From the NCBI GenBank assembly GCA_023229115.1, contig JALNZW010000001.1, positions 6,861 through 70,860 on the forward strand: DNA of 64,000 nucleotides. Reading direction: 5' to 3'. Positions within the stretch are counted from its first letter, which is position 1. Each line of letters starts with the position of its first letter. The notes beneath the pieces are model-generated. The model was not told the origin of the DNA. It saw only the letters and a list, made by a program, of their open reading frames with translations, and ran no database searches. The DNA is from Patescibacteria group bacterium. GTDB lineage: Bacteria; Patescibacteriota; Patescibacteriia; Patescibacteriales; UBA12465. This document shows positions 8,851 to 62,240 of this stretch, one piece after another. Both the position numbers and the translations under genes were made by a program.

Positions 8851-8872
8851 AATCTCTAAAAAGAGATTTTTT
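8851..8872 (+). terminator. rho-independent terminator
   Basis: AATCTCT-aaaa-AGAGATT followed by a T-run. Confidence 0.6.
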
Positions 8873-9032
8873 CCAAAATGAGTCCTATGCTGGAGGTCCC
8901 AGCCACGCCTCCATCCGGAGACAGTTCGGATATCAATTTTTTGTATTTATATTATATATTATTTTGAAAAATAAAACAATATTAAAAAATAAAGGTCGGT
9001 TTTAATATTTAATAAAAAATAATCTTAAAGAT

Positions 9033-52265: not shown

Positions 52266-52353
52266 GGAGAGTTCGCATAGTGGTCTAGTGCGCACGCTTG
52301 GAAAGCGTGTATACCGCAAGGTATCAAGGGTTCGAATCCCTTACTCTCCGCCA
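52266..52353 (+). tRNA. tRNA-Ser (anticodon GGA), class II with long variable arm, CCA encoded
   Basis: Manual fold gives acceptor GGAGAGT/ACTCTCC, a D-arm, anticodon stem CACGC/GCGTG with loop TTGGAAA, variable arm ATACC-GCAA-GGTAT, T-arm AAGGG-TTCGAAT-CCCTT, and discriminator G plus CCA. Confidence 0.9.
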
Positions 52354-52381
52354 AGACAATTTAGTATCGGATAGACCCAAG

Positions 52382-52405
52382 AGCCTAGCTTATGCTAGGT
52401 TTTTT
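52382..52405 (+). terminator. rho-independent terminator after the tRNA
   Basis: AGCCTAGC-ttat-GCTAGGTT followed by a T-run. Confidence 0.7.
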
Positions 52406-52469
52406 GATATTATTTAGTAATTTTAATTTTAGCCTGAATAATTTAAAAAAAAGAGGTATAATTATATAT

Positions 52470-53437: not shown

Positions 53438-54802
53438 TTATAACATTAATAAAGATAATTTTTTATCTTTTAGCACAATCTTACTCCTTAAATTAACCAG
53501 TAACTCACGTTTCTCAATAGAACTTCCTTCTTTTAGCACGTATTTAGCATAAACCCGCATATCAACTGCGGGTTTTGTTTTTCTTTTAGGATTTTTATCC
53601 ATTAGGATCATGTTTTGAAACTTATTAAATCTATTAACCTCAGCTTCTAATTTAACTCTCATTCCAAGCTCATTAATATCTACTTTATCCATAATTTTTA
53701 AAAGCTCAAATATCAATTCTTCTTCTCTTATGTATTTATTTTTACAGAATCTGTCTCTTGCTCTTGAGCAACCATAATAAATGTAATGAGCAGTAGTTCC
53801 GTCTTTTAATTTTTTATACTTATCTTCTGCTGATATTCCTGATCCACAACATCCGCAAGTTATTAATTTAGTAAAAGCAAATTCTTTACTTTCTCTTTGA
53901 ATATTATCTCTTTTAAGTTGAGCTTTAGCTTTCTCAAATAAGTCTTGGGAGATAAGTGGTTTATGTTTACCTTGATACCAATTACCACTACCTTTTGGTC
54001 GTTCAAAGATTCCATAATAGAAAGGGTTATCTAATATTCTATATATTCCACTTAGTGTTAAAGGTTTATTACCTCTAGTATAGAAGTTGAGTTCATGTTT
54101 TAGCCAGTGATAGAGTTTTCGACCACTATATTTTTCATAAGCAACTTTTTCAAACATTTTCTTAATAGCGGGAGCTCTTAATGGATCAACAATAACTTGG
54201 CATTTTCTATCCATTCTATTTTGGTTTAGATATCCCAGTGGAGCAGGTCCAACCCATAATCCCATTTCACATCTAGTTCTTAGTCCTCTTTTAACATTAA
54301 TACTTCTGTTGTCATTTTCTAACTTTGCTTGTGATCCTAAAATCATTAAGAGAAATTTCTCATTGGGATTGTTAGTAAATTTTTGACTATGCGTTCTTAT
54401 CTCTTTTAATATTCCTTGATCTATTAAATCTACTACTTTTCCTAGGTCTCCTGCATTTCTAGATATTCTATCAGGAGCCCAGGTTAGTATGCTATTAAAT
54501 TTATTTTGCCTAATATCCTCAATTAATTCATTGAATATTGGCCTTTGACCTGTATCTTTGGCACTGTGAGATTCTCGTTTTATCTCTACAACATTTATAT
54601 TTTCCTTAGCAGCTAAATCTAGCATCTCTTTAATTTGGCTATCTATTGATAGCACCTGTCTTTCCTCTGATTCCGTTGATTTTCTTGCGTAAAGGCAATA
54701 TCTTAGCGGAATTTCGCTAACGCTTGAATTTGCCCCATTAGGGCTTGAAATTAGCCCAGTTTGGCTCTTAGTTGTCATTAATTGTTTAAAATCTTGTATC
54801 AT
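53438..54802 (-). CDS. large serine recombinase (integrase)
   Basis: Resolvase catalytic domain (YARKSTESEERQVLSIDSQ), a recombinase domain, and a zinc ribbon (CGCCGS...YYGCSR). Confidence 0.9.
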   Translation of the reverse strand: MIQDFKQLMTTKSQTGLISSPNGANSSVSEIPLRYCLYARKSTESEERQVLSIDSQIKEMLDLAAKENINVVEIKRESHSAKDTGQRPIFNELIEDIRQNKFNSILTWAPDRISRNAGDLGKVVDLIDQGILKEIRTHSQKFTNNPNEKFLLMILGSQAKLENDNRSINVKRGLRTRCEMGLWVGPAPLGYLNQNRMDRKCQVIVDPLRAPAIKKMFEKVAYEKYSGRKLYHWLKHELNFYTRGNKPLTLSGIYRILDNPFYYGIFERPKGSGNWYQGKHKPLISQDLFEKAKAQLKRDNIQRESKEFAFTKLITCGCCGSGISAEDKYKKLKDGTTAHYIYYGCSRARDRFCKNKYIREEELIFELLKIMDKVDINELGMRVKLEAEVNRFNKFQNMILMDKNPKRKTKPAVDMRVYAKYVLKEGSSIEKRELLVNLRSKIVLKDKKLSLLML

Positions 54803-55010
54803 ATAGTCTTGTTAACTGCTATCTACTAGATTAATGACGTATAAGGGGATATATGTCTAGAGCCATAAAGTTGATAAGATGTAGATAAATAGGCTATTTA
54901 TTTCTCTAAGATTCAATAAAATTTAAATTGATTTTTTAGTAAATTTATGATAAATTAAATGTAAAGAATTAATAAATAAATTCTGATTATTTTTTATTAA
55001 ATTAATTTAT

Positions 55011-56528
55011 ATGGCTAAAGAAAAAGAGAAAAATGGAAAATTTGAAGCACAGCTTTTTAAGGCAGCGGATAAACTTCGTAAAAATATTGATGCGGCAGAA
55101 TACAAGAATGTTGCTCTTGGGTTGATTTTTCTTAAATATATTTCTGAAAGTTTTCAAGAGTTGTATGACAAACTCTCACAAGATGAGTTTTCTGACCCAG
55201 AAGATAGAGATGAATATAAAGCGGAAAATATCTTTTTTGTACCTGAAAAAGCAAGGTGGAAAAACTTACAAGCCAAAGCAAAATTACCAACTATTGGACA
55301 AGAGCTTGATGATGCAATGGAGGCGATAGAAAAAGAAAATTCCGAACTTCGTAATGTTTTGCCAAAAGTATTTGGAAAGCCAAATCTTGATACAACTTCT
55401 CTTGGTCAATTGATTGATCTTATTTCAAATACAGAGCTCAAAGCAACTAGTGAAAACTCTAAAGATCTTTTTGGTCGTGTGTATGAATATTTTTTGGGTG
55501 AATTTGCCAACGCTGAGGGAAAAAAAGGAGGACAATTTTACACTCCTAAGTCTATTGTAAAACTGATGGTTGAGATGATCGAACCATATAAGGGTCGTGT
55601 CTATGATCCGGCCTGTGGTAGTGGTGGCATGTTTGTTATGAGTGAAAAATTTATTCAAGAACATCGAGGAAATATTAAAGACATTACAATTTATGGACAA
55701 GAATCAAATCAGACCACTTGGAAATTATCTAAAATGAATCTAGCTATCCGAAATATAAATTCGCAATTTGTTGTTTGGAACACAGGAGGAAGTTTTTTAA
55801 AAGATGCTCATCCTGATCTCAAAGCTGACTATATTCTAGCAAATCCTCCGTTCAATCAGTCTGATTGGGGACGAGAAATTTTACAAGATGATGCAAGGTG
55901 GAAATATGGAGTACCACCAAATGGAAATGCTAATTTTGCTTGGATGCAACACATGCTTTATCACCTAGCATCTAATGGGGTAATGGCAACTGTTTTGGCA
56001 AATGGAAGTCTTAGTTCTAATACTTCAGGTGAAGGAGAGATAAGAAAAAATCTGATAGAAAATGACTTGGTAGAATGTATTGTGGCTCTTCCAAAACAAC
56101 TTTTTTATAATACTGGAATCCCTGCTTGTATTTGGTTTCTTCGTAGAGAAAGACAAGTCAGAAAAAACGAGATTCTTTTTATAGATGCTTCAGAAATGGG
56201 TTTTTTGAAAGATCGTGTTCATAGAGAATTTACAGATGAAGATATGGATAAAATAAGCGAAACATATCACAACTGGAAAAAAAATTCGGAGAAATATGAA
56301 AATATCAAAGGCTTTTGTAAGTCTGCAAAAAGAGGTGAGGTGGAAAAAAACAACTTTGTGTTGACTCCTGGCCCTTATGTTGGAATTACCGATGCAATAG
56401 ATGACGGCATTCCTTTTGAGGAAAAGATGGAAAAATTGACAAATATTTTAAAAGAACAGTTTGCTAAGGAAGAAAAAATGAATGAAGAGATTAAAAAACA
56501 AATGAAAAAAATAGGTTTTAGTATCTAA
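55011..56528 (+). CDS. hsdM: type I R-M DNA methyltransferase subunit M
   Basis: LFKAADKLRKNIDAAEYKNVALGLIFLKYISE, DPACGSGG and NPPF. Confidence 0.95.
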   Translation: MAKEKEKNGKFEAQLFKAADKLRKNIDAAEYKNVALGLIFLKYISESFQELYDKLSQDEFSDPEDRDEYKAENIFFVPEKARWKNLQAKAKLPTIGQELDDAMEAIEKENSELRNVLPKVFGKPNLDTTSLGQLIDLISNTELKATSENSKDLFGRVYEYFLGEFANAEGKKGGQFYTPKSIVKLMVEMIEPYKGRVYDPACGSGGMFVMSEKFIQEHRGNIKDITIYGQESNQTTWKLSKMNLAIRNINSQFVVWNTGGSFLKDAHPDLKADYILANPPFNQSDWGREILQDDARWKYGVPPNGNANFAWMQHMLYHLASNGVMATVLANGSLSSNTSGEGEIRKNLIENDLVECIVALPKQLFYNTGIPACIWFLRRERQVRKNEILFIDASEMGFLKDRVHREFTDEDMDKISETYHNWKKNSEKYENIKGFCKSAKRGEVEKNNFVLTPGPYVGITDAIDDGIPFEEKMEKLTNILKEQFAKEEKMNEEIKKQMKKIGFSI

Positions 56529-56539
56529 TAATAAAGGAT

Positions 56540-57745
56540 ATGACTGAAAAAAAATTAAATACTAAAAATAATAAAAATCTACCTCCGATTAATTGGGTAG
56601 AAACAACTTTGGGAAAGGTTATAAAAATTGGAAGAGGGTCATCACCTAGACCAATCCAAAATTATATCGTTGAAAAAAAAGGTATTCCTTGGGTAAAAAT
56701 TGCAGACGCAACAGCATCCCGTAGTAGATATATAGAAAAAACAAAAGAATTCATTAAAGAAGAAGGAAGAAGTACGTCTGTCTCTCCTGGTGATTTAATA
56801 GTTTCAAATAGCGCAACTCCAGGTATTCCAAAATTTATGAAAATTGAGGCATGCGTTCATGATGGTTGGTTAGTTTTTAGTGAGTACAAAAATCTTGATA
56901 AATTATATCTTTATTACTTTTTCCTTGATTATAGAATAAGATTAGAACGATCTGCATTTGGTACAGTTTTTAAAAATTTAACAACAGAAATTGTAAGAAG
57001 TGTTCCAATTTTTCTTCCCCCTCTCCGTGAACAAAAAGCCATTGCTTCGTTGCTTTCGGCTTATGATGACAAGATTGAGCTTTTGAAATATCAAAACAAG
57101 ACGCTGGAAGAGATTGGGCAAGTAATTTTTCAGGAGTGGTTTGGGAAGTATGAATTGGATGATTTTATAAAAGTTCAGGAAATTTTAGAGTTTGAAAAAG
57201 GAGTTGAAATTGGATCAAATAATTATTTTGTTAATAAAAATGATTTAGAAAAACCAGAAATGTTTTATAGAGTTGGAGATATAGCAAATAATGGAAATAA
57301 TTCATCTATTTATTGTGAAAAAGATTTATTGAAGGGTAAAATATTTAAAAACGATGATGTTTTAGTAAGCTTTGATGGAACAGTTGGAAGGGTTTTTATA
57401 GGCGGAAATGGTGGTTATTCTTCTGGAATTAGAAAGATTTTTGATAAAAATGTAAATATTAAAAATTCATTTTTATATTTTTGGGCAAAATCAGAACAAG
57501 TTCAAGAAACAATAAATTTATATTCAGAAGGAACAACAATTCAGCATGCTGGTAGGTCAATTCCGTATTTAGAAATTATTTCTAATCGAGAAAATATTGA
57601 TGAAATAACAGAAAGTTTAAACCCAGTTTTTATAAAGATTTTAGAAAATCTTAATCAAATAAGAATACTTTCAAGCGCTCGTGATGAAATTCTGCCAAAA
57701 CTTATGTCCGGAATTGTTAGAGTTAATGATTTTAGTAGTAATTAG
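56540..57745 (+). CDS. hsdS: type I R-M specificity subunit S
   Basis: Two TRDs separated by LPPLREQKAIASLLSAYDDKIELL, with a C-terminal conserved helix RDEILPKLMSG. Confidence 0.9.
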   Translation: MTEKKLNTKNNKNLPPINWVETTLGKVIKIGRGSSPRPIQNYIVEKKGIPWVKIADATASRSRYIEKTKEFIKEEGRSTSVSPGDLIVSNSATPGIPKFMKIEACVHDGWLVFSEYKNLDKLYLYYFFLDYRIRLERSAFGTVFKNLTTEIVRSVPIFLPPLREQKAIASLLSAYDDKIELLKYQNKTLEEIGQVIFQEWFGKYELDDFIKVQEILEFEKGVEIGSNNYFVNKNDLEKPEMFYRVGDIANNGNNSSIYCEKDLLKGKIFKNDDVLVSFDGTVGRVFIGGNGGYSSGIRKIFDKNVNIKNSFLYFWAKSEQVQETINLYSEGTTIQHAGRSIPYLEIISNRENIDEITESLNPVFIKILENLNQIRILSSARDEILPKLMSGIVRVNDFSSN

Positions 57746-57753
57746 AAATTTAT

Positions 57754-58776
57754 ATGGAAAAAGTAATTTTTGATACAAATATTCTTAGAAATTTAGAACC
57801 TAAAAATTTTCTTGGTGGTAGAGATGAGTTAAAAAAATTTTCCGAGGTAGCAGAAATTATTTTCCCTGACTTGGTGATAGAAGAGTTAAAATATCAAAAA
57901 AGGAAACAACTTGAAAAACATAAAAAATCATTTTTGGACAATCCATTTCATTGGTTAATAAAGATTAACCAACAAGATATAGAAAAATTTGACAATGAAG
58001 CTCATATTACGGATCTGGAAAATAGCGAAGACATAAAATATACTGTTATAAGGTTACAAGATTATTCAATCTTGGAGCGAATAAAAGTGTTAGCGCTTAA
58101 AAAGATTTCTCCATTTGAAAAAGGAGATAATACAGATAAGGGATTTAAGGATGCTTATATATATTTTACAATCTTAGAATATTTACAAACAATTGCAGAT
58201 AAACATATTTTTGTTTGCACGAAAGATGGAAGATTAAAAGAAGCATTACAAAAACATTCTAATATTAAGACTGTACAAAACTTTGAAGAATTTGAAAAAT
58301 ACAGTGTTACATCTTTTTATGATGAATATTTTATAAACAAGCTAAAAGAATCTGTTCATTTAGATATAGTAAAAGATAGTATAAAAGATTTTTGGTTTGG
58401 CGCAGAAGAAAACCAATTTTTATTAATAGAGGTTGAAGATGAAAAATTGGTAATTGAAATAGATCAAAGAGAGATAGTTTCTAATATTAACTACAATTTA
58501 ATCAAAGATGATATAGAAAAAATAATAGTATCTGATAATTGGAAAAACACCCATGCTAGGTGTAAAAATATTTTGTTAAATGTAAAATATATAACACCAT
58601 CTGATTCAAAAAGATTATTTAGTGCTTTACTCGATAATGACCAGATTTATGAAACTTATAGTTATGGCGTACAAAATTTTTACAATAAATTATTTAAAAT
58701 TCATTATCATTTATTAGATCATAGTGATTTAGAAAAAATGAAAAGTGAGTTTAAGCTATATTATAGTAATGATTAA
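57754..58776 (+). CDS. PIN-like domain (PIN_12/DUF4935-type) protein with an unknown C-terminal half
   Basis: Acidic-residue spacing VIFDTNIL ... VIEEL ... FKDAYIYFTILEY ... VCTKDGRL fits a PIN fold. It is inserted between hsdS and hsdR. Confidence 0.6.
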   Translation: MEKVIFDTNILRNLEPKNFLGGRDELKKFSEVAEIIFPDLVIEELKYQKRKQLEKHKKSFLDNPFHWLIKINQQDIEKFDNEAHITDLENSEDIKYTVIRLQDYSILERIKVLALKKISPFEKGDNTDKGFKDAYIYFTILEYLQTIADKHIFVCTKDGRLKEALQKHSNIKTVQNFEEFEKYSVTSFYDEYFINKLKESVHLDIVKDSIKDFWFGAEENQFLLIEVEDEKLVIEIDQREIVSNINYNLIKDDIEKIIVSDNWKNTHARCKNILLNVKYITPSDSKRLFSALLDNDQIYETYSYGVQNFYNKLFKIHYHLLDHSDLEKMKSEFKLYYSND

Positions 58777-58802
58777 GCTTTTTGAGAATTAATTAAAATA
58801 TT

Positions 58803-61800
58803 ATGACCACACTAAACGAATCAAATATCGAACAAAATCTTATAGACTTGCTCACAGCACAAGGATATATGTATTTTTATGGTCCAGATATTGCTCCTTA
58901 TTCTGCTAATCCTCAAAGAGAAAGTTTTGCTTCTGTTGTTTTAGAAAGTCACCTCAAAGAATCTTTAAAGAGGCTTAATCCTGATATCCCAGAATCTGCG
59001 CGACAAGAAGCGTGTCAACAAATTGTTAATCTGGGCTCTCAAGACTTAATGGCAAATAATGAAAAGTTTCACAATTTTCTCACTGATGGAATTACAGTTG
59101 AATATTTTAAAGATGGGAACACTAAAGGAATTAATGTTAAACTTCTTGACCTAGAAAATATAGAGAATAATAGTTTTTGGGCAGTTAATCAATTTGTTAT
59201 TAAAGAAAATAATAATGAAAAAAGGCTTGATGTCGTAATTTTTGTAAATGGAATCCCTTTGGTTGTAGTGGAACTTAAAAGTGCCATTGACGAAAAAGCG
59301 ACGTTAGATAGAGCTTTTACTCAAATTCAAAATTATAAGAAAGCTGTGCCTAGTATTTTTTACTATAATTCATTATGCGTTATTTCCGATGGAATAGATG
59401 CTAGATCCTCTAGCATCTCTGCTCCTTTTTCTCGTTATCTTGCATGGAAAAGTCCTGAGAAAATAGAAAACGGAAAGCTTACAGAAATGCAGATTATGGT
59501 AGAAAGAATGCTTAATAAAGAAGTATTACTTCGTCTTGTCAGATATAATACAGTTTTTGAAGAAGAAGAAATAAAAGATGAAAAAACAGGACTTTTGTCA
59601 GTTATAAAAGTAAAGAAAATCGCAGCATATCATCAATATTATGCCGTAGAGAAAGCTATTAGAGAAACTCTTCGAGCTACTAATTCAGACATAGGCGACA
59701 GAAAGGTTGGAGTAGTTTGGCATACCCAAGGATCCGGAAAGTCTCTCTCTATGGTTTTTTATACTGGACAAATTGTTGTTCAACCAGAAATGAAGAATCC
59801 AACTATTGTGATTTTAACCGATAGGAATGATCTTGATGATCAACTTTTTGGAACTTTTGGAAATTGTAAACAATTGCTTAGACAAACACCTGTGCAGGCG
59901 GAAAATAGAGAGCATTTAAAAGAGCTTCTTAAAGTTTCTGGAGGGGGAATTGTTTTTACCACTATTCAAAAATTTGCCCCAAGCGAAGGAAATGTTTATG
60001 AAACTTTATCTGAAAGATCAAATATTGTAGTTGTAGCAGATGAGGCTCATCGAAGCCAATATGGATTCAAAGGAAGAGAGGTAGAGACAGAAGATGGATC
60101 AGAAATCAGATATGGAAACGCAAAGTATTTAAGAGATGCTCTACCAAAGGCCTCTTTTATTGGGTTTACTGGGACTCCGATAGAAAAAGAAGACAGGTCA
60201 ACTAGAAATGTTTTTGGCGATGAGATAGATATTTACGATATTAAACAAGCTGTAGATGATGGAGCAACTGTACCAATCAATTACGAATCAAGGCTTGTGA
60301 AGATTAGGCTTAACAAAGAAGTGGTAGATAAAATTGATTATGCAGTTGATGAAATTCCAGGGGCGACAGAAGAGCAAAAAGAAAAAGCTAAAAAGAAAAA
60401 TGCTAAAATAGATGCAATAGTTGGGCATCCCGAAAGATTGCAAGATATTTCAAAAGATATTGTTTCTCATTTTGAAGCAAGACAAAAAACTTTTGAAGGT
60501 AAAGCAATGGTCGTGTGTATGACAAGACAAATTGCAGTATGGTTGTACCAAGAAATTATTAATCTTCGCCCAGATTGGCATAGTGAGGATTTGGATAAAG
60601 GTAATATAAAGATAGTAATGACATCTTCCTCTGACGATCCAGAAAGCTTTCAATCGCATCATACTAGTAAGAGTGATCGTAAGAAATTAGCTAATAGATT
60701 TAAAAATGAAAATGATGAATTAAATATCGTTATTGTTCAGTCTATGTGGCTCACAGGTTTTGATGTTCCTTGTTTACATACCATGTATATTGATAAAAAA
60801 ATGCAAGGCGCAAACCTAATGCAAGCCATTGCTCGTGTTAATCGTGTGTACAAAGATAAGCCAGGTGGACTTATTGTGGATTATATTGGAATCGGGCAAG
60901 ACCTTAGAAATGCAATGGGCGTCTATATTAAAAGTGGCGGAGAAGGAGAAGCCGTGCTTGATATTGCTGAAATTATAGCAGGAATGAAAACAAAGTTTGA
61001 AATTGTGGAACAAATGTTTCATGGTTTTGAATATAAAAAATATTTTAAATCTGAAAATAATGAGAAATTAAAAATCATTCTTGGTGCTACCAACTTTATA
61101 TTGCAAGATGAAAAGCTAAAAAATAGATTTATTGCTGAAATTACTGCATTATCAAAACTTTTTGCAATGGCAGTCCCTAGTTTTGAATCAGAGCAAATAA
61201 GAGATGAAGTTGCCTTTTTTCAATCAATAAAAGCTCGTATTAATAAATTTACTCCAAGTGGAGGAAAGTCAGATAAACAAGTAGAAACAGCGGTTAAGCA
61301 AATAGTAGATGAAGCACTCGCAAGTGACGGAGTTGTGGATATATTTGAGGCCGCAGGAGTAAAAACTCCAACACTTGATATCTTGTCAGAGGAATTTTTG
61401 CTTGAAGTTAAAAATATGGAGCAAAAAAATCTTGCTTTTGAGTTACTTCGTAAATTATTGAATGATGAAGTAAAAATTAGAAAAAGAAAAAACATGACAC
61501 AGGGAAAAATATTCTCCGAGATGTTGGAAAATATAATTAAAAAATATCATAATAATCAAATTGATACGGCTCAAGTTATTCAAGAGCTTTCAGAAATTGC
61601 TCGTGAGATGAAATTAGAAGATAAAAAAGCAGAAGATATTGGACTTACGCCAGAGGAGTATGCTTTCTATTCAGTACTTTCAGAAAATGATTCAACTAAG
61701 TTTTTAGAAGATCATAAGATGAAAGAATTAATTCATGTAATAGTTGATATTATTAGAAAAAATGCAACAGTAGACTGGGAAAAAAGAGAAGATGTTAGAG

Positions 61801-61931
61801 CTAAACTTCGTTTAACTGTTAAAAAGATACTGATGAAATATGGTTATCCTCCTGATTTAGCCAGAATTGAAGCGGATAGAGTTTTGGAACAAGGTGAATT
61901 GTTGGCAAGTGAATTAACAAGATTAAAGTAA
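58803..61931 (+). CDS. hsdR: type I restriction endonuclease subunit R
   Basis: LDVVIFVNGIPLVVVELKS, WHTQGSGKS, DEAHRSQ and QAIARVNR. Confidence 0.95.
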   Translation: MTTLNESNIEQNLIDLLTAQGYMYFYGPDIAPYSANPQRESFASVVLESHLKESLKRLNPDIPESARQEACQQIVNLGSQDLMANNEKFHNFLTDGITVEYFKDGNTKGINVKLLDLENIENNSFWAVNQFVIKENNNEKRLDVVIFVNGIPLVVVELKSAIDEKATLDRAFTQIQNYKKAVPSIFYYNSLCVISDGIDARSSSISAPFSRYLAWKSPEKIENGKLTEMQIMVERMLNKEVLLRLVRYNTVFEEEEIKDEKTGLLSVIKVKKIAAYHQYYAVEKAIRETLRATNSDIGDRKVGVVWHTQGSGKSLSMVFYTGQIVVQPEMKNPTIVILTDRNDLDDQLFGTFGNCKQLLRQTPVQAENREHLKELLKVSGGGIVFTTIQKFAPSEGNVYETLSERSNIVVVADEAHRSQYGFKGREVETEDGSEIRYGNAKYLRDALPKASFIGFTGTPIEKEDRSTRNVFGDEIDIYDIKQAVDDGATVPINYESRLVKIRLNKEVVDKIDYAVDEIPGATEEQKEKAKKKNAKIDAIVGHPERLQDISKDIVSHFEARQKTFEGKAMVVCMTRQIAVWLYQEIINLRPDWHSEDLDKGNIKIVMTSSSDDPESFQSHHTSKSDRKKLANRFKNENDELNIVIVQSMWLTGFDVPCLHTMYIDKKMQGANLMQAIARVNRVYKDKPGGLIVDYIGIGQDLRNAMGVYIKSGGEGEAVLDIAEIIAGMKTKFEIVEQMFHGFEYKKYFKSENNEKLKIILGATNFILQDEKLKNRFIAEITALSKLFAMAVPSFESEQIRDEVAFFQSIKARINKFTPSGGKSDKQVETAVKQIVDEALASDGVVDIFEAAGVKTPTLDILSEEFLLEVKNMEQKNLAFELLRKLLNDEVKIRKRKNMTQGKIFSEMLENIIKKYHNNQIDTAQVIQELSEIAREMKLEDKKAEDIGLTPEEYAFYSVLSENDSTKFLEDHKMKELIHVIVDIIRKNATVDWEKREDVRAKLRLTVKKILMKYGYPPDLARIEADRVLEQGELLASELTRLK

Positions 61932-61978: not shown

Positions 61979-62040
61979 GTTGTAGACAAGATGTAGGTAA
62001 CTATTCTTTACTTTTAGGCTATTTTAAGCTATATTTTAAG

Positions 62041-62185
62041 TGCGAAACCACAATTGAATATTCCGAAAGAAGCATGAAACATGCTGTCATTTGTATACAG
62101 GAACGGGCACTCCGACCCTATACAAGTGGCAGTCTTTCGGGACACCAATTGTGGTTTCGCAACCAAGGTCGGGTGTCCGTTTTTG
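62041..62185 (+). ncRNA. unclassified highly structured RNA-like element (candidate cis-regulatory leader or sRNA)
   Basis: A 16-bp closing helix (62041-56/62146-61), an 8-10-bp P2 (62063-70/62133-40), a hairpin at 62071-85, and a 12-bp P3 (62086-97/62119-30). A terminator-like hairpin plus T-run (62140-62184) overlaps the 3' strands. G-U pairs favour the + strand. Confidence 0.5.
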
Positions 62186-62240
62186 TTTATTAGAGCCTTG
62201 CCTTATCTAATAAATTAATTAGCCATAAGGCTACAAAGTT

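Follow-up and report, generated by a model that had tools for sequence, protein, structure and literature searches.

A previously undescribed family of compact structured RNAs in mobile islands, mostly of Patescibacteria, with a putative fold-embedded terminator

A 64,000-nucleotide (nt) stretch of contig JALNZW010000001.1 (assembly GCA_023229115.1) from a Patescibacteria group bacterium, hereafter the window, carries on its forward strand an intergenic element (positions 62041-62184) which, judged by its fold and by the covariation among its homologs, encodes a compact structured RNA belonging to a family not described before. An earlier, sequence-only reading of this DNA had described a highly base-paired RNA-like element of no recognised class whose 3' strands can also enter a mutually exclusive terminator hairpin. 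The role that we favour, with confidence and doubt about evenly balanced, is that of a structured leader and small RNA (sRNA) with a fold-embedded terminator that would gate transcriptional read-through into cargo open reading frames (ORFs) of mobile islands.

Folding of positions 62035-62190 reproduces the helices that the sequence-only reading had proposed: P1 (62041-56 with 62146-61; 16 perfect bp), P2 (62063-70/62133-40, which the minimum free energy (MFE) fold extends by 62061-62/62141-42), a 6-bp hairpin with an AAA loop (62071-85; here called P2a) and P3 (62086-97/62119-30), including its two U.G pairs. The long closing helix P1 is followed by an internal loop, by P2 and by a three-way junction bearing P2a and P3, and this junction is nearly fully paired, as the few unpaired bases noted earlier had implied. 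Total pairing amounts to about 47 bp, to which a pseudoknot described below would be added. The MFE of the + strand is -67.1 kcal/mol, as against -36.3 +/- 3.9 kcal/mol for dinucleotide shuffles (z -7.9; 0 of 200 as good), and the fold of the - strand is about 7 kcal/mol weaker (-59.7 kcal/mol). In the window, the perfect P1 helix is worth about -25 kcal/mol, and its 16-mer arms are the sole match pair even at up to three mismatches; among the homologs this helix measures 13-16 bp, and the RNA, about 144 nt long in the window, measures 143-156 nt.

Seventy-two distinct full-length homologs were assembled into an alignment (A2); they stem mostly from metagenome-assembled genomes (MAGs) labelled as Patescibacteria or candidate phyla radiation (CPR) bacteria, and from metagenomes. 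The exact 193-amino-acid (aa) protein encoded downstream of the element was found on metagenome contigs only, and its homologs led to three contigs (L064, L072 and L073) in which the intergenic element is kept and the upstream genes differ. Comparison of these three provided an early instance of compensation in P1, with GCGAAACCACAATTG replaced by GCAAAACTACATTT and matched by changes in the 3' arm. A first large scan, in which a pattern built on two invariant blocks (segments A and C, see below) was run against 185,579 GTDB species-representative genomes, gave 44 true members. According to the record titles, from which host taxonomy was taken, 21 of these 44 are MAGs assigned to the Patescibacteria, Parcubacteria, Falkowbacteria, Paceibacterota or Saccharibacteria, 14 are MAGs from third-party co-assemblies that bear the name 'uncultured Gammaproteobacteria' (which could not be checked), and the remaining nine comprise four called 'bacterium' only and five assigned to Rhizobiaceae, Tepidanaerobacteraceae, Muribaculaceae, Bacteroidota and Planctomycetota. 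A second scan, of JGI and ENA metagenomes, held the promoter (with a gap of 14 nt after TTTACTTTT), GC.AAAC and GGAACGG fixed, left the rest free, and returned 48 stretches. Four scan matches (L074, L076, L087, L119) lay by chance in GC-rich coding DNA and were dropped.

Within IMG/VR, one contig only contains the element, in two diverged copies (L075 and L077). This 32.5-kb viral-classed contig (IMGVR_UViG_3300042286_000458) holds the whole module twice, at 72-87% DNA identity, as a recombinase, the RNA, a 138-aa ORF, a helix-turn-helix (HTH)/terS-like protein, a methyltransferase and a ParB-methyltransferase; a third serine recombinase is present as well. A scan of viral contigs with P1-arm 15-mers yielded 60 matches (L004-L063), all of them single-arm matches in unrelated, mostly coding DNA that we attribute to chance, and a search of viral contigs for relatives of the 193-aa ORF found none.

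The sequence-only reading had named homologs with compensatory changes as the check on its proposal, and the 72 homologs do keep the fold through such changes. In a model-fitted alignment (A5), 26 of the 40 modelled pairs have changed on both sides (P1 7 of 15, P2 8 of 9, P3 11 of 11), and six base-proximal P1 pairs are invariant. Paired cells make up 96.9% of this alignment (97% for P1, 99.9% for P3), as against 36-45% after displacement of the 3' partners by 1-3 columns, and none of 500 column shuffles attains the observed covariation score. The fitting of A5 to the structure introduces a bias, from which the displaced-partner control and the folds of single sequences are free. Folded individually, 71 of the 72 sequences adopt the same three-way-junction topology, and a hairpin of differing sequence and length is predicted at the P2a site in 71 homologs. 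Furthermore, RNAalifold recovers P1 and P3 from a MAFFT alignment.

G.U pairs are common in these helices, one P3 pair being U.G in 51 of the 72 sequences, and the covariance model scores 110-156 bits on the + strand versus 23-31 bits on the - strand. The frequent G.U pairs and the strand bias of the model indicate that the constraint acts on a + strand transcript, and the geometry of promoter and terminator and the covariation agree with the strand assigned in the earlier reading. On this comparative evidence, the structure is conserved by selection on the + strand RNA. A coding function was rejected, since the changes in the stems are compensatory, insertions and deletions fall in loops, and the only ORFs that traverse the element extend downstream genes from TTG starts.

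The promoter noted earlier (TTTACT-17 bp-TATATT) is present about 3 nt to the right of the approximate position then given (62004-62032), and it ends exactly 5 nt before the first P1 base. TAnnnT occupies positions -11 to -6 from the first P1 base in 72 of 73 homologs (46 of 47 among those not selected on the promoter), and a -35 hexamer, TTTACT or TTGnnn at 17 bp spacing, is kept even at eight loci where the promoter sequence is unrelated. At the other end, every homolog terminates in GUCC-G-UUUUU. The second hairpin of the sequence-only reading, GGACACC 62140-46 with GGTGTCC 62172-78 plus TGGTT/AACCA and TTTTT (62180-84), is likewise present and has a folding energy of -18.2 kcal/mol alone. 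As expected of an intrinsic terminator, the 3' strand of its G+C-rich stem abuts the U-tract, and the helix between segments A and C, described below, ends at the same site. The P1 3'-strand segment 62152-56 (UGGUU) can pair instead with 62161-65 (AACCA). From these signals, transcription would start at 62041 (+/- 1-2 nt) and the short form would end within 62180-88, giving an RNA of about 144 nt. The upstream hsdR gene (58803-61931) has a terminator of its own at about 61950-80, upstream of the RNA.

The second conserved feature of the family is a long-range complementarity that the sequence-only reading had not noticed. Segment A, in the apical region of P3, has the consensus GGRCAYNCCGACC and is complementary to segment C, in the 3' tail, over 12 bp with N bulged; 99.7% of cells pair across the 72 sequences. 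Common variation in segment A is confined to R at 62107 opposite U, Y at 62110 opposite G and any base at the bulge, and the rare A:C mismatches are limited to one each in L118, L172 and L130. Segment A is near-invariant also in the metagenome set, in which it was absent from the search pattern. The A:C duplex is worth -24.5 kcal/mol, as against a cost of about 9 kcal/mol for opening the apical stem, and we infer that this pseudoknot forms. The A:C complementarity would be compatible with either intramolecular or intermolecular pairing.

Segment C has three alternative partners, namely A, B and D. Its 7-bp pairing with segment B, the 5' strand of the outer terminator stem, is present in 97.8% of cells, with C/U variation that is wobble-compatible and an A.G mismatch in five sequences; changes in segment C of L078 (U to C opposite G) and L130 (G to A opposite U) keep A:C and break B:C. 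Segment D falls within the 30 nt that follow the U-tract and precedes the start codon without covering it; the mean C:D duplex energy is -12.3 kcal/mol versus -6.1 kcal/mol for shuffles, and the duplex reaches -8 kcal/mol or lower in 56 of 71 loci and is weak in the window (-9.1 kcal/mol). The inner stem of the terminator covaries as well (columns 134-145: GC 34, AU 18, UA 9, unpaired 9). Covariation links column 134 to its P1 partner (column 9) as well, and the columns that share the most mutual information with column 145 are 9 and 134. Since two alternative pairings covary, the mutually exclusive terminator proposed by the sequence-only reading gains support, and, as far as covariation can tell, the alternative states are both under selection.

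P3 plus the pseudoknot (about 24 bp) and P1 plus P2 (about 26 bp) are of similar length, and the linker between P1 and segment C is short (5-6 nt; about 1 nt in L098 and L156), which suggests a model of two antiparallel stacks closed at both ends. Two loci are broken at the apical block. L166 (10-161, - strand) is a hybrid RNA gene whose 5' and 3' halves belong to different subtypes and are joined in the invariant apical block, so that P1 is unpaired, and L134 (RNA-oriented about 3366 onward) carries a deletion that runs from the apical block to past the terminator; both would be explained by recombination at that block or by chimeric assembly.

Such break points, the variable flanking DNA, the perfect inverted repeat formed by P1 and the position in mobile islands with an adjoining recombinase could also be expected of a DNA-level site, be it a palindrome of the miniature inverted-repeat transposable element (MITE) or repetitive extragenic palindromic (REP) type, an att or attC-like site or an oriT/sso origin, in which the covariation would reflect nothing but inverted-repeat upkeep. 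We consider this improbable in the extreme. Like a MITE or REP element, the DNA is intergenic and has a perfect 16-bp inverted repeat at the ends of its roughly 120 bp; unlike them, it is single-copy, lacks a target-site duplication, contains covarying inner helices with strand-specific G.U pairs, and has its own promoter and terminator. Searched with the covariance model, the 64-kb window and each related locus yield exactly one copy apiece; among the 41 MAGs with a match in the scan of 185,579 genomes, 38 have a single matching contig and three have two, and the pairs examined differ in sequence. The bases next to P1, TAAGT on one side and AACCA on the other, do not form direct repeats. Hence the MITE alternative that the sequence-only reading had itself raised is excluded by the single copy and the lack of a target-site duplication. 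The three nested helices covary independently, and their G.U pairs would be A.C on the other strand. Moreover, the distance of the promoter is fixed and the U-tract terminator is conserved even where the promoter has been replaced in sequence, and a palindrome needs neither feature. Integron attC sites are not matched either, as there is one copy per locus and the recombinase is of the serine type rather than an IntI tyrosine recombinase.

According to the leader reading that we favour, the promoter-RNA-terminator module would give rise to an abundant short RNA, in which the invariant P3 apical block would pair with the invariant 3' tail so that the 12-bp pseudoknot closes the molecule against the U-tract. 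The completed fold or, failing that, the local B:C hairpin would terminate transcription, and the choice of partner by the tail (A, B or D) would determine the level of read-through into a variable envelope-protein ORF 8-75 nt further on. The element would be an attenuating leader and an sRNA in one, and its control would lie with RNA folding or a macromolecular partner, not with a small metabolite. We arrive at this reading because an ORF always follows, sometimes too near for a promoter of its own, and because the alternative pairings covary. A same-strand ORF begins 8-75 nt past the U-tract in nearly all loci, sometimes only 8-20 nt away, and in the window the ATG of the 193-aa ORF (62241) is located 56 nt past the U-run (55 nt in the earlier reading).

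The riboswitch- or attenuator-like design put forward by the sequence-only reading stands in one part only: the exclusive terminator pairing is borne out, and a ligand-tuned P1 is not, since P1 is perfect and forms before the terminator 3' strand, which makes such tuning implausible. A small-molecule riboswitch with the junction and the pseudoknot as aptamer and the B:C hairpin as expression platform would account for the three-way covariation, for the sharing of the pseudoknot 3' strand and the P1 3' strand with the terminator stems, and for the same-strand gene that follows. However, the perfect P1 of 13-16 bp is not marginally stable, the junction has few conserved unpaired nucleotides, the invariant blocks are explained by pairing, the heterogeneous envelope proteins encoded in mobile islands form no coherent regulon, and there is no match to an Rfam riboswitch. 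We therefore consider a riboswitch very unlikely.

Searches against known families agree with the earlier failure to recognise a class. None of the 4227 models of Rfam 15 matches the element, either at E<=10 locally or at the gathering score across the window, and in 12 diverse homologous loci only tRNAs were found at the gathering threshold. BLASTN of the element against phage and plasmid collections gave no match, and we found no description in the literature of such an RNA, of a similar regulatory RNA or island element in Patescibacteria, or of an RNA partner of a large serine recombinase. A housekeeping RNA (signal recognition particle RNA, 6S RNA or tRNA-like) was rejected on the grounds of the missing Rfam match, the two diverged copies in some MAGs and the mobile-island setting.

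Several known systems nevertheless invite comparison. In ZTP and preQ1-I riboswitches, a pseudoknot strand is shared with the intrinsic terminator of the expression platform. The element resembles attenuators of this type in its succession of a structured 5' region, a hairpin, a U-tract and an ORF, in its exclusive pairings and in column 134 with its two partners. It differs in the lack of an evident unpaired pocket and of an Rfam family, in its perfect and very stable P1, in the heterogeneity of the downstream genes and in sharing the 3' strand of the terminator, which has three partners. By analogy, we take as its closest working likeness a terminator-coupled leader in which pseudoknot and terminator have a strand in common. 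The c4 RNAs of P1 and P7 (Rfam C4) and the CI RNA of P4 are immunity RNAs of mobile elements that are made from a transcription unit containing their complementary targets. They share with the element its nature as a small structured RNA of a mobile element near an integration module, and a complementary site, here a candidate target, in the same unit (C versus D); in contrast, the element has no sequence or Rfam C4 match, is larger, contains a three-way junction and a pseudoknot, and has ends apparently set by promoter and terminator, whereas the ends of c4 and CI are generated by RNase P processing. The phi29 pRNA (RF00044) has a three-way-junction core and an intermolecular pairing of 4 bp. 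Its size of about 120-150 nt, long end helix, three-way core, distant complementary segments and nearby small-terminase-like gene are all reminiscent of the element; unlike it, the element has no RF00044 match, is not accompanied by portal, capsid or ATPase genes, pairs over 12 rather than 4 bp, and abuts a terminator.

Two further groups come from studies of RNAs linked to mobile DNA. The HEARO and DUF3800 motifs are orphan structured RNAs of mobile elements that were found by comparative genomics (Weinberg et al. 2010, PMC2864571; 2017, PMC5737381); the element shares with them its covariation-based discovery and its mobile or defence-rich DNA, and has a different sequence and fold. The window holds a second orphan structured RNA of this kind, a DUF3800-IX motif at 8871-8939 on the - strand (46.8 bits versus a gathering score of 36.8 in Rfam). 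The bridge RNA or seekRNA of IS110/IS1111 recombinases is a structured RNA beside a recombinase gene (PMC13604230). The likeness lies in a structured RNA of about 150 nt adjoining the gene of a site-specific recombinase in a mobile element; the differences are a large serine recombinase instead of a DEDD enzyme, an RNA that is divergent from the recombinase gene rather than upstream of it in the same orientation, no programmable internal loops, and many copies without an adjacent recombinase.

The features of the element and of its surroundings are collected in Table 1.

Table 1. Features of the structured RNA gene and of the island around it (positions in the window; segment letters as in the text)
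Feature	Position	Strand	Remark
tRNA-Ser(GGA), then trailer AGACAATTTAGTATCGGATAGACCC	52266-52353	+	probable left island boundary
Large serine recombinase gene	53438-54802	-	Resolvase, Recombinase, Zn_ribbon_recom domains
Type I restriction-modification (R-M) and PIN cargo	55011-61931		
Repeat GTAGACAAGATGTAGGTAAC, just 5' of the -35 hexamer	61982-62001	+	candidate operator or recombination site
Sigma-70-type promoter (TTTACT 62007-12, 17 bp, TATATT 62030-35)	62007-62035	+	
P1, 5' strand	62041-62056	+	predicted RNA 5' end at 62041
P2, 5' strand	62061-62070	+	fold and covariation
P2a, variable hairpin (here 6 bp, AAA loop)	62071-62085	+	fold
P3, 5' strand	62086-62097	+	fold and covariation
Segment A GGGCACUCCGACC, P3 apical region	62105-62117	+	5' strand of proposed pseudoknot; 62111 bulged
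P3, 3' strand	62119-62130	+	fold and covariation
P2, 3' strand	62133-62142	+	fold and covariation
Segment B GGACACC	62140-62146	+	5' strand of outer terminator stem
P1, 3' strand	62146-62161	+	three-way covariation (alignment columns 9, 134, 145)
Segment C GGUCGGGUGUCC, 3' tail	62167-62178	+	pairing hub
U-tract UUUUUGUUU	62180-62188	+	predicted 3' end of the short RNA
Downstream cargo ORF, 193 aa	62241-62822	+	N-terminal transmembrane (TM) segment, no Pfam match

The window presents, in this order, the tRNA-Ser gene, a SEC-C protein, the recombinase, the R-M and PIN cargo, the RNA and the 193-aa membrane ORF, so that 10 kb of island, including the type I R-M system, lie between the tRNA and the RNA. 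Past the 193-aa ORF, an HTH/small-terminase-like protein and an N6/N4 methyltransferase are encoded on the minus strand, and in related loci a ParB-methyltransferase comes after the methyltransferase homologs. Sixty-seven loci had enough upstream DNA for a survey. The recombinase gene is divergent from the RNA, with its start codon 100-330 nt upstream, in 31 of them, and lies further upstream with cargo in between in another seven, the window included (38 of 67 adjoining or near). A same-strand tRNA gene is found within 300 nt upstream in nine loci, eight times a tRNA-Ser, and the other 20 show different arrangements, among them L080 with a probable tyrosine integrase as read from its N-terminal sequence.

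A same-strand tRNA-Ser gene precedes the RNA in at least 17 loci. The trailer AGACAATTTAGTATCGGATAGACCC and a terminator hairpin (52354-52410 in the window) follow tRNA-Ser genes of the anticodons GGA, GCU and CGA, and the trailer recurs past the tRNA-Ser genes of L089, L097, L152, L164 and L171; L084, L103, L159 and L167 have a different junction, directly after CTCTCCGC. From these junctions, the islands appear to sit at the 3' ends of tRNA-Ser genes, and the trailer looks like their left end or an att site. A search for an attR found no repeat of the tRNA-Ser 3' end downstream within the locus sequences searched.

Between contexts, homology starts at the -35 hexamer and ends past segment D, which delimits a module of about 200 bp, made up of promoter, RNA and terminator, between flanks that vary. 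Since this module recurs in variable surroundings, the tie to the 62241 gene or to the R-M genes that the sequence-only reading had suggested checking did not materialise. Upstream cargo includes R-M systems, SduA (Shedu-like) and DUF4238 proteins, and the slot 5' of the RNA, by its gene content, is behaving as a defence-gene hotspot. In the window, a 340-aa PIN_12 protein (57754-58776, +) is inserted between hsdS and hsdR, and in L064 an SduA_C (Shedu-like) protein comes after a type I R-M system that is not the one of the window. No phage structural genes (portal, capsid or packaging ATPase) were seen in the loci checked. Three loci (L082, L085, L104) combine an unrelated promoter with a longer U-tract, UUUUUUU, and about 200 nt of conserved non-coding DNA before the next gene; L085 has a distant serine recombinase homolog about 5.7 kb downstream.

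Just upstream of the -35 hexamer, the motif GTAGGTAAnTTGTTGGTAAC is kept in related loci with an adjacent integrase. In the window, the longer arrangement GT(T/A)GA(T/C)AAGATGTAG(A/G)TAA...TAGGCTATTT occurs at 54870-54899 and at 61982-62029 and flanks the 7-kb type I R-M and PIN cargo; the copy at 54870-54899 is degenerate and without the -35 segment. The -35 sequence CTTTACT is an inverted copy of the GGTAAAG motif. The GTAGACAAGATGTAGGTAAC/GTAGGTAAnTTGTTGGTAAC repeat may be an operator or a site of cargo insertion or recombination.

The downstream ORFs checked encode an N-terminal TM segment or a signal peptide and are otherwise unrelated; they include Zn-ribbon membrane proteins, bPH_2, OB-fold tRNA_anti-like, SNase nuclease, trypsin-like protease and proteins without a Pfam match. 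In the window, a hairpin (TAGCC-ATAA-GGCTA, 62220-62233) lies 7 nt before the ATG of the 193-aa ORF, and L072 and L073 have TAGCC...GGCTC, one difference at the stem end; this hairpin might affect translation initiation of that cargo subtype.

A number of points weigh against the leader reading with its gated read-through. The sequences share kinship, and the shuffle controls therefore overstate significance. The invariance of segments A and C is partly imposed by the search patterns, each block having been free in only one of the two large scans. The ends of the transcript, and any read-through, are predictions. By a rough comparison with ViennaRNA, which does not score pseudoknots and hence leaves out a pseudoknot loop penalty, the state with P1 and pseudoknot is about 9 kcal/mol more stable than that with the terminator hairpin, and P1 forms before segment C is transcribed, which raises the question of what would populate the alternative state. 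A:C and B:C both abut the U-tract, and as either may terminate transcription, the 'gate' may be a constitutive terminator. Many spacers between RNA and ORF contain a TATAAAT-like motif, a possible independent promoter of the ORF. Finally, the downstream ORFs are heterogeneous, the RNA subtype of the window alone preceding at least five different ones, and an autonomous RNA fits this heterogeneity equally well.

Such an autonomous RNA, acting in trans or bound by a protein, with the downstream ORFs as unrelated hotspot cargo, is a serious though clearly less probable alternative. It might serve in immunity or exclusion in the style of P4 CI or P1 c4 or as a decoy, or it might act on the recombinase, the HTH protein or the methyltransferase module as cofactor or regulator. 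The conserved unit is precisely the RNA with its promoter and terminator, its approximately 47 bp and pseudoknot go far beyond what an attenuator needs, in 31 of 67 loci a divergent recombinase gene starts 100-330 nt upstream, with seven more loci where it is further upstream, and tail C is complementary to D in its own unit as c4 and CI are to their targets. However, when +/-4 kb around the RNA at every locus was searched for sequences able to pair with the invariant blocks, none but D was found and there was no enrichment, and 29 of the 67 loci have no upstream recombinase homolog in the sequence examined, nine lying directly past a tRNA and L080 having its probable tyrosine integrase instead. 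There is also no obvious programmable guide loop: every variable position is base-paired, for which reason a guide RNA was rejected.

A more far-reaching proposal, which we regard as speculative and rather unlikely, is that the bistable, pseudoknot-closed RNA would be a functional part of a new kind of serine-recombinase island targeting tRNA-Ser genes in the CPR and would control the island in trans. We are equally hesitant about its mechanistic corollary, in which the two states would expose or hide the 5' strand and the apical block and thereby effect immunity or exclusion, or act in regulation of, or as a cofactor for, the recombinase or the HTH protein, beyond any attenuation of cargo genes.

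Irrespective of the role, we file the element as a new family within the general kind of structured leaders and sRNAs of mobile elements, because it could be assigned to none of the catalogued families against which it was tested. The family, with its 72 members, three covarying helices, a putative 12-bp pseudoknot and a defined promoter and terminator, is strongly supported. Its covariance model can be used to find such islands in metagenomes and perhaps to assign hosts to them. If the link to the recombinase were true, the RNA would also be of practical interest, as large serine recombinases are genome-engineering tools. An invariant 3' segment with three partners, and a helix base that covaries with two, are unusual, and the RNA offers a tractable model for fold-embedded termination or for RNA switching without a metabolite. 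The CPR represents a very large, mostly uncultured and poorly known part of bacterial diversity, and in these organisms the RNA marks a class of islands near tRNA-Ser genes, often beside a large serine recombinase, that carry both defence cargo (R-M, Shedu-like SduA, DUF4238, PIN) and envelope cargo.

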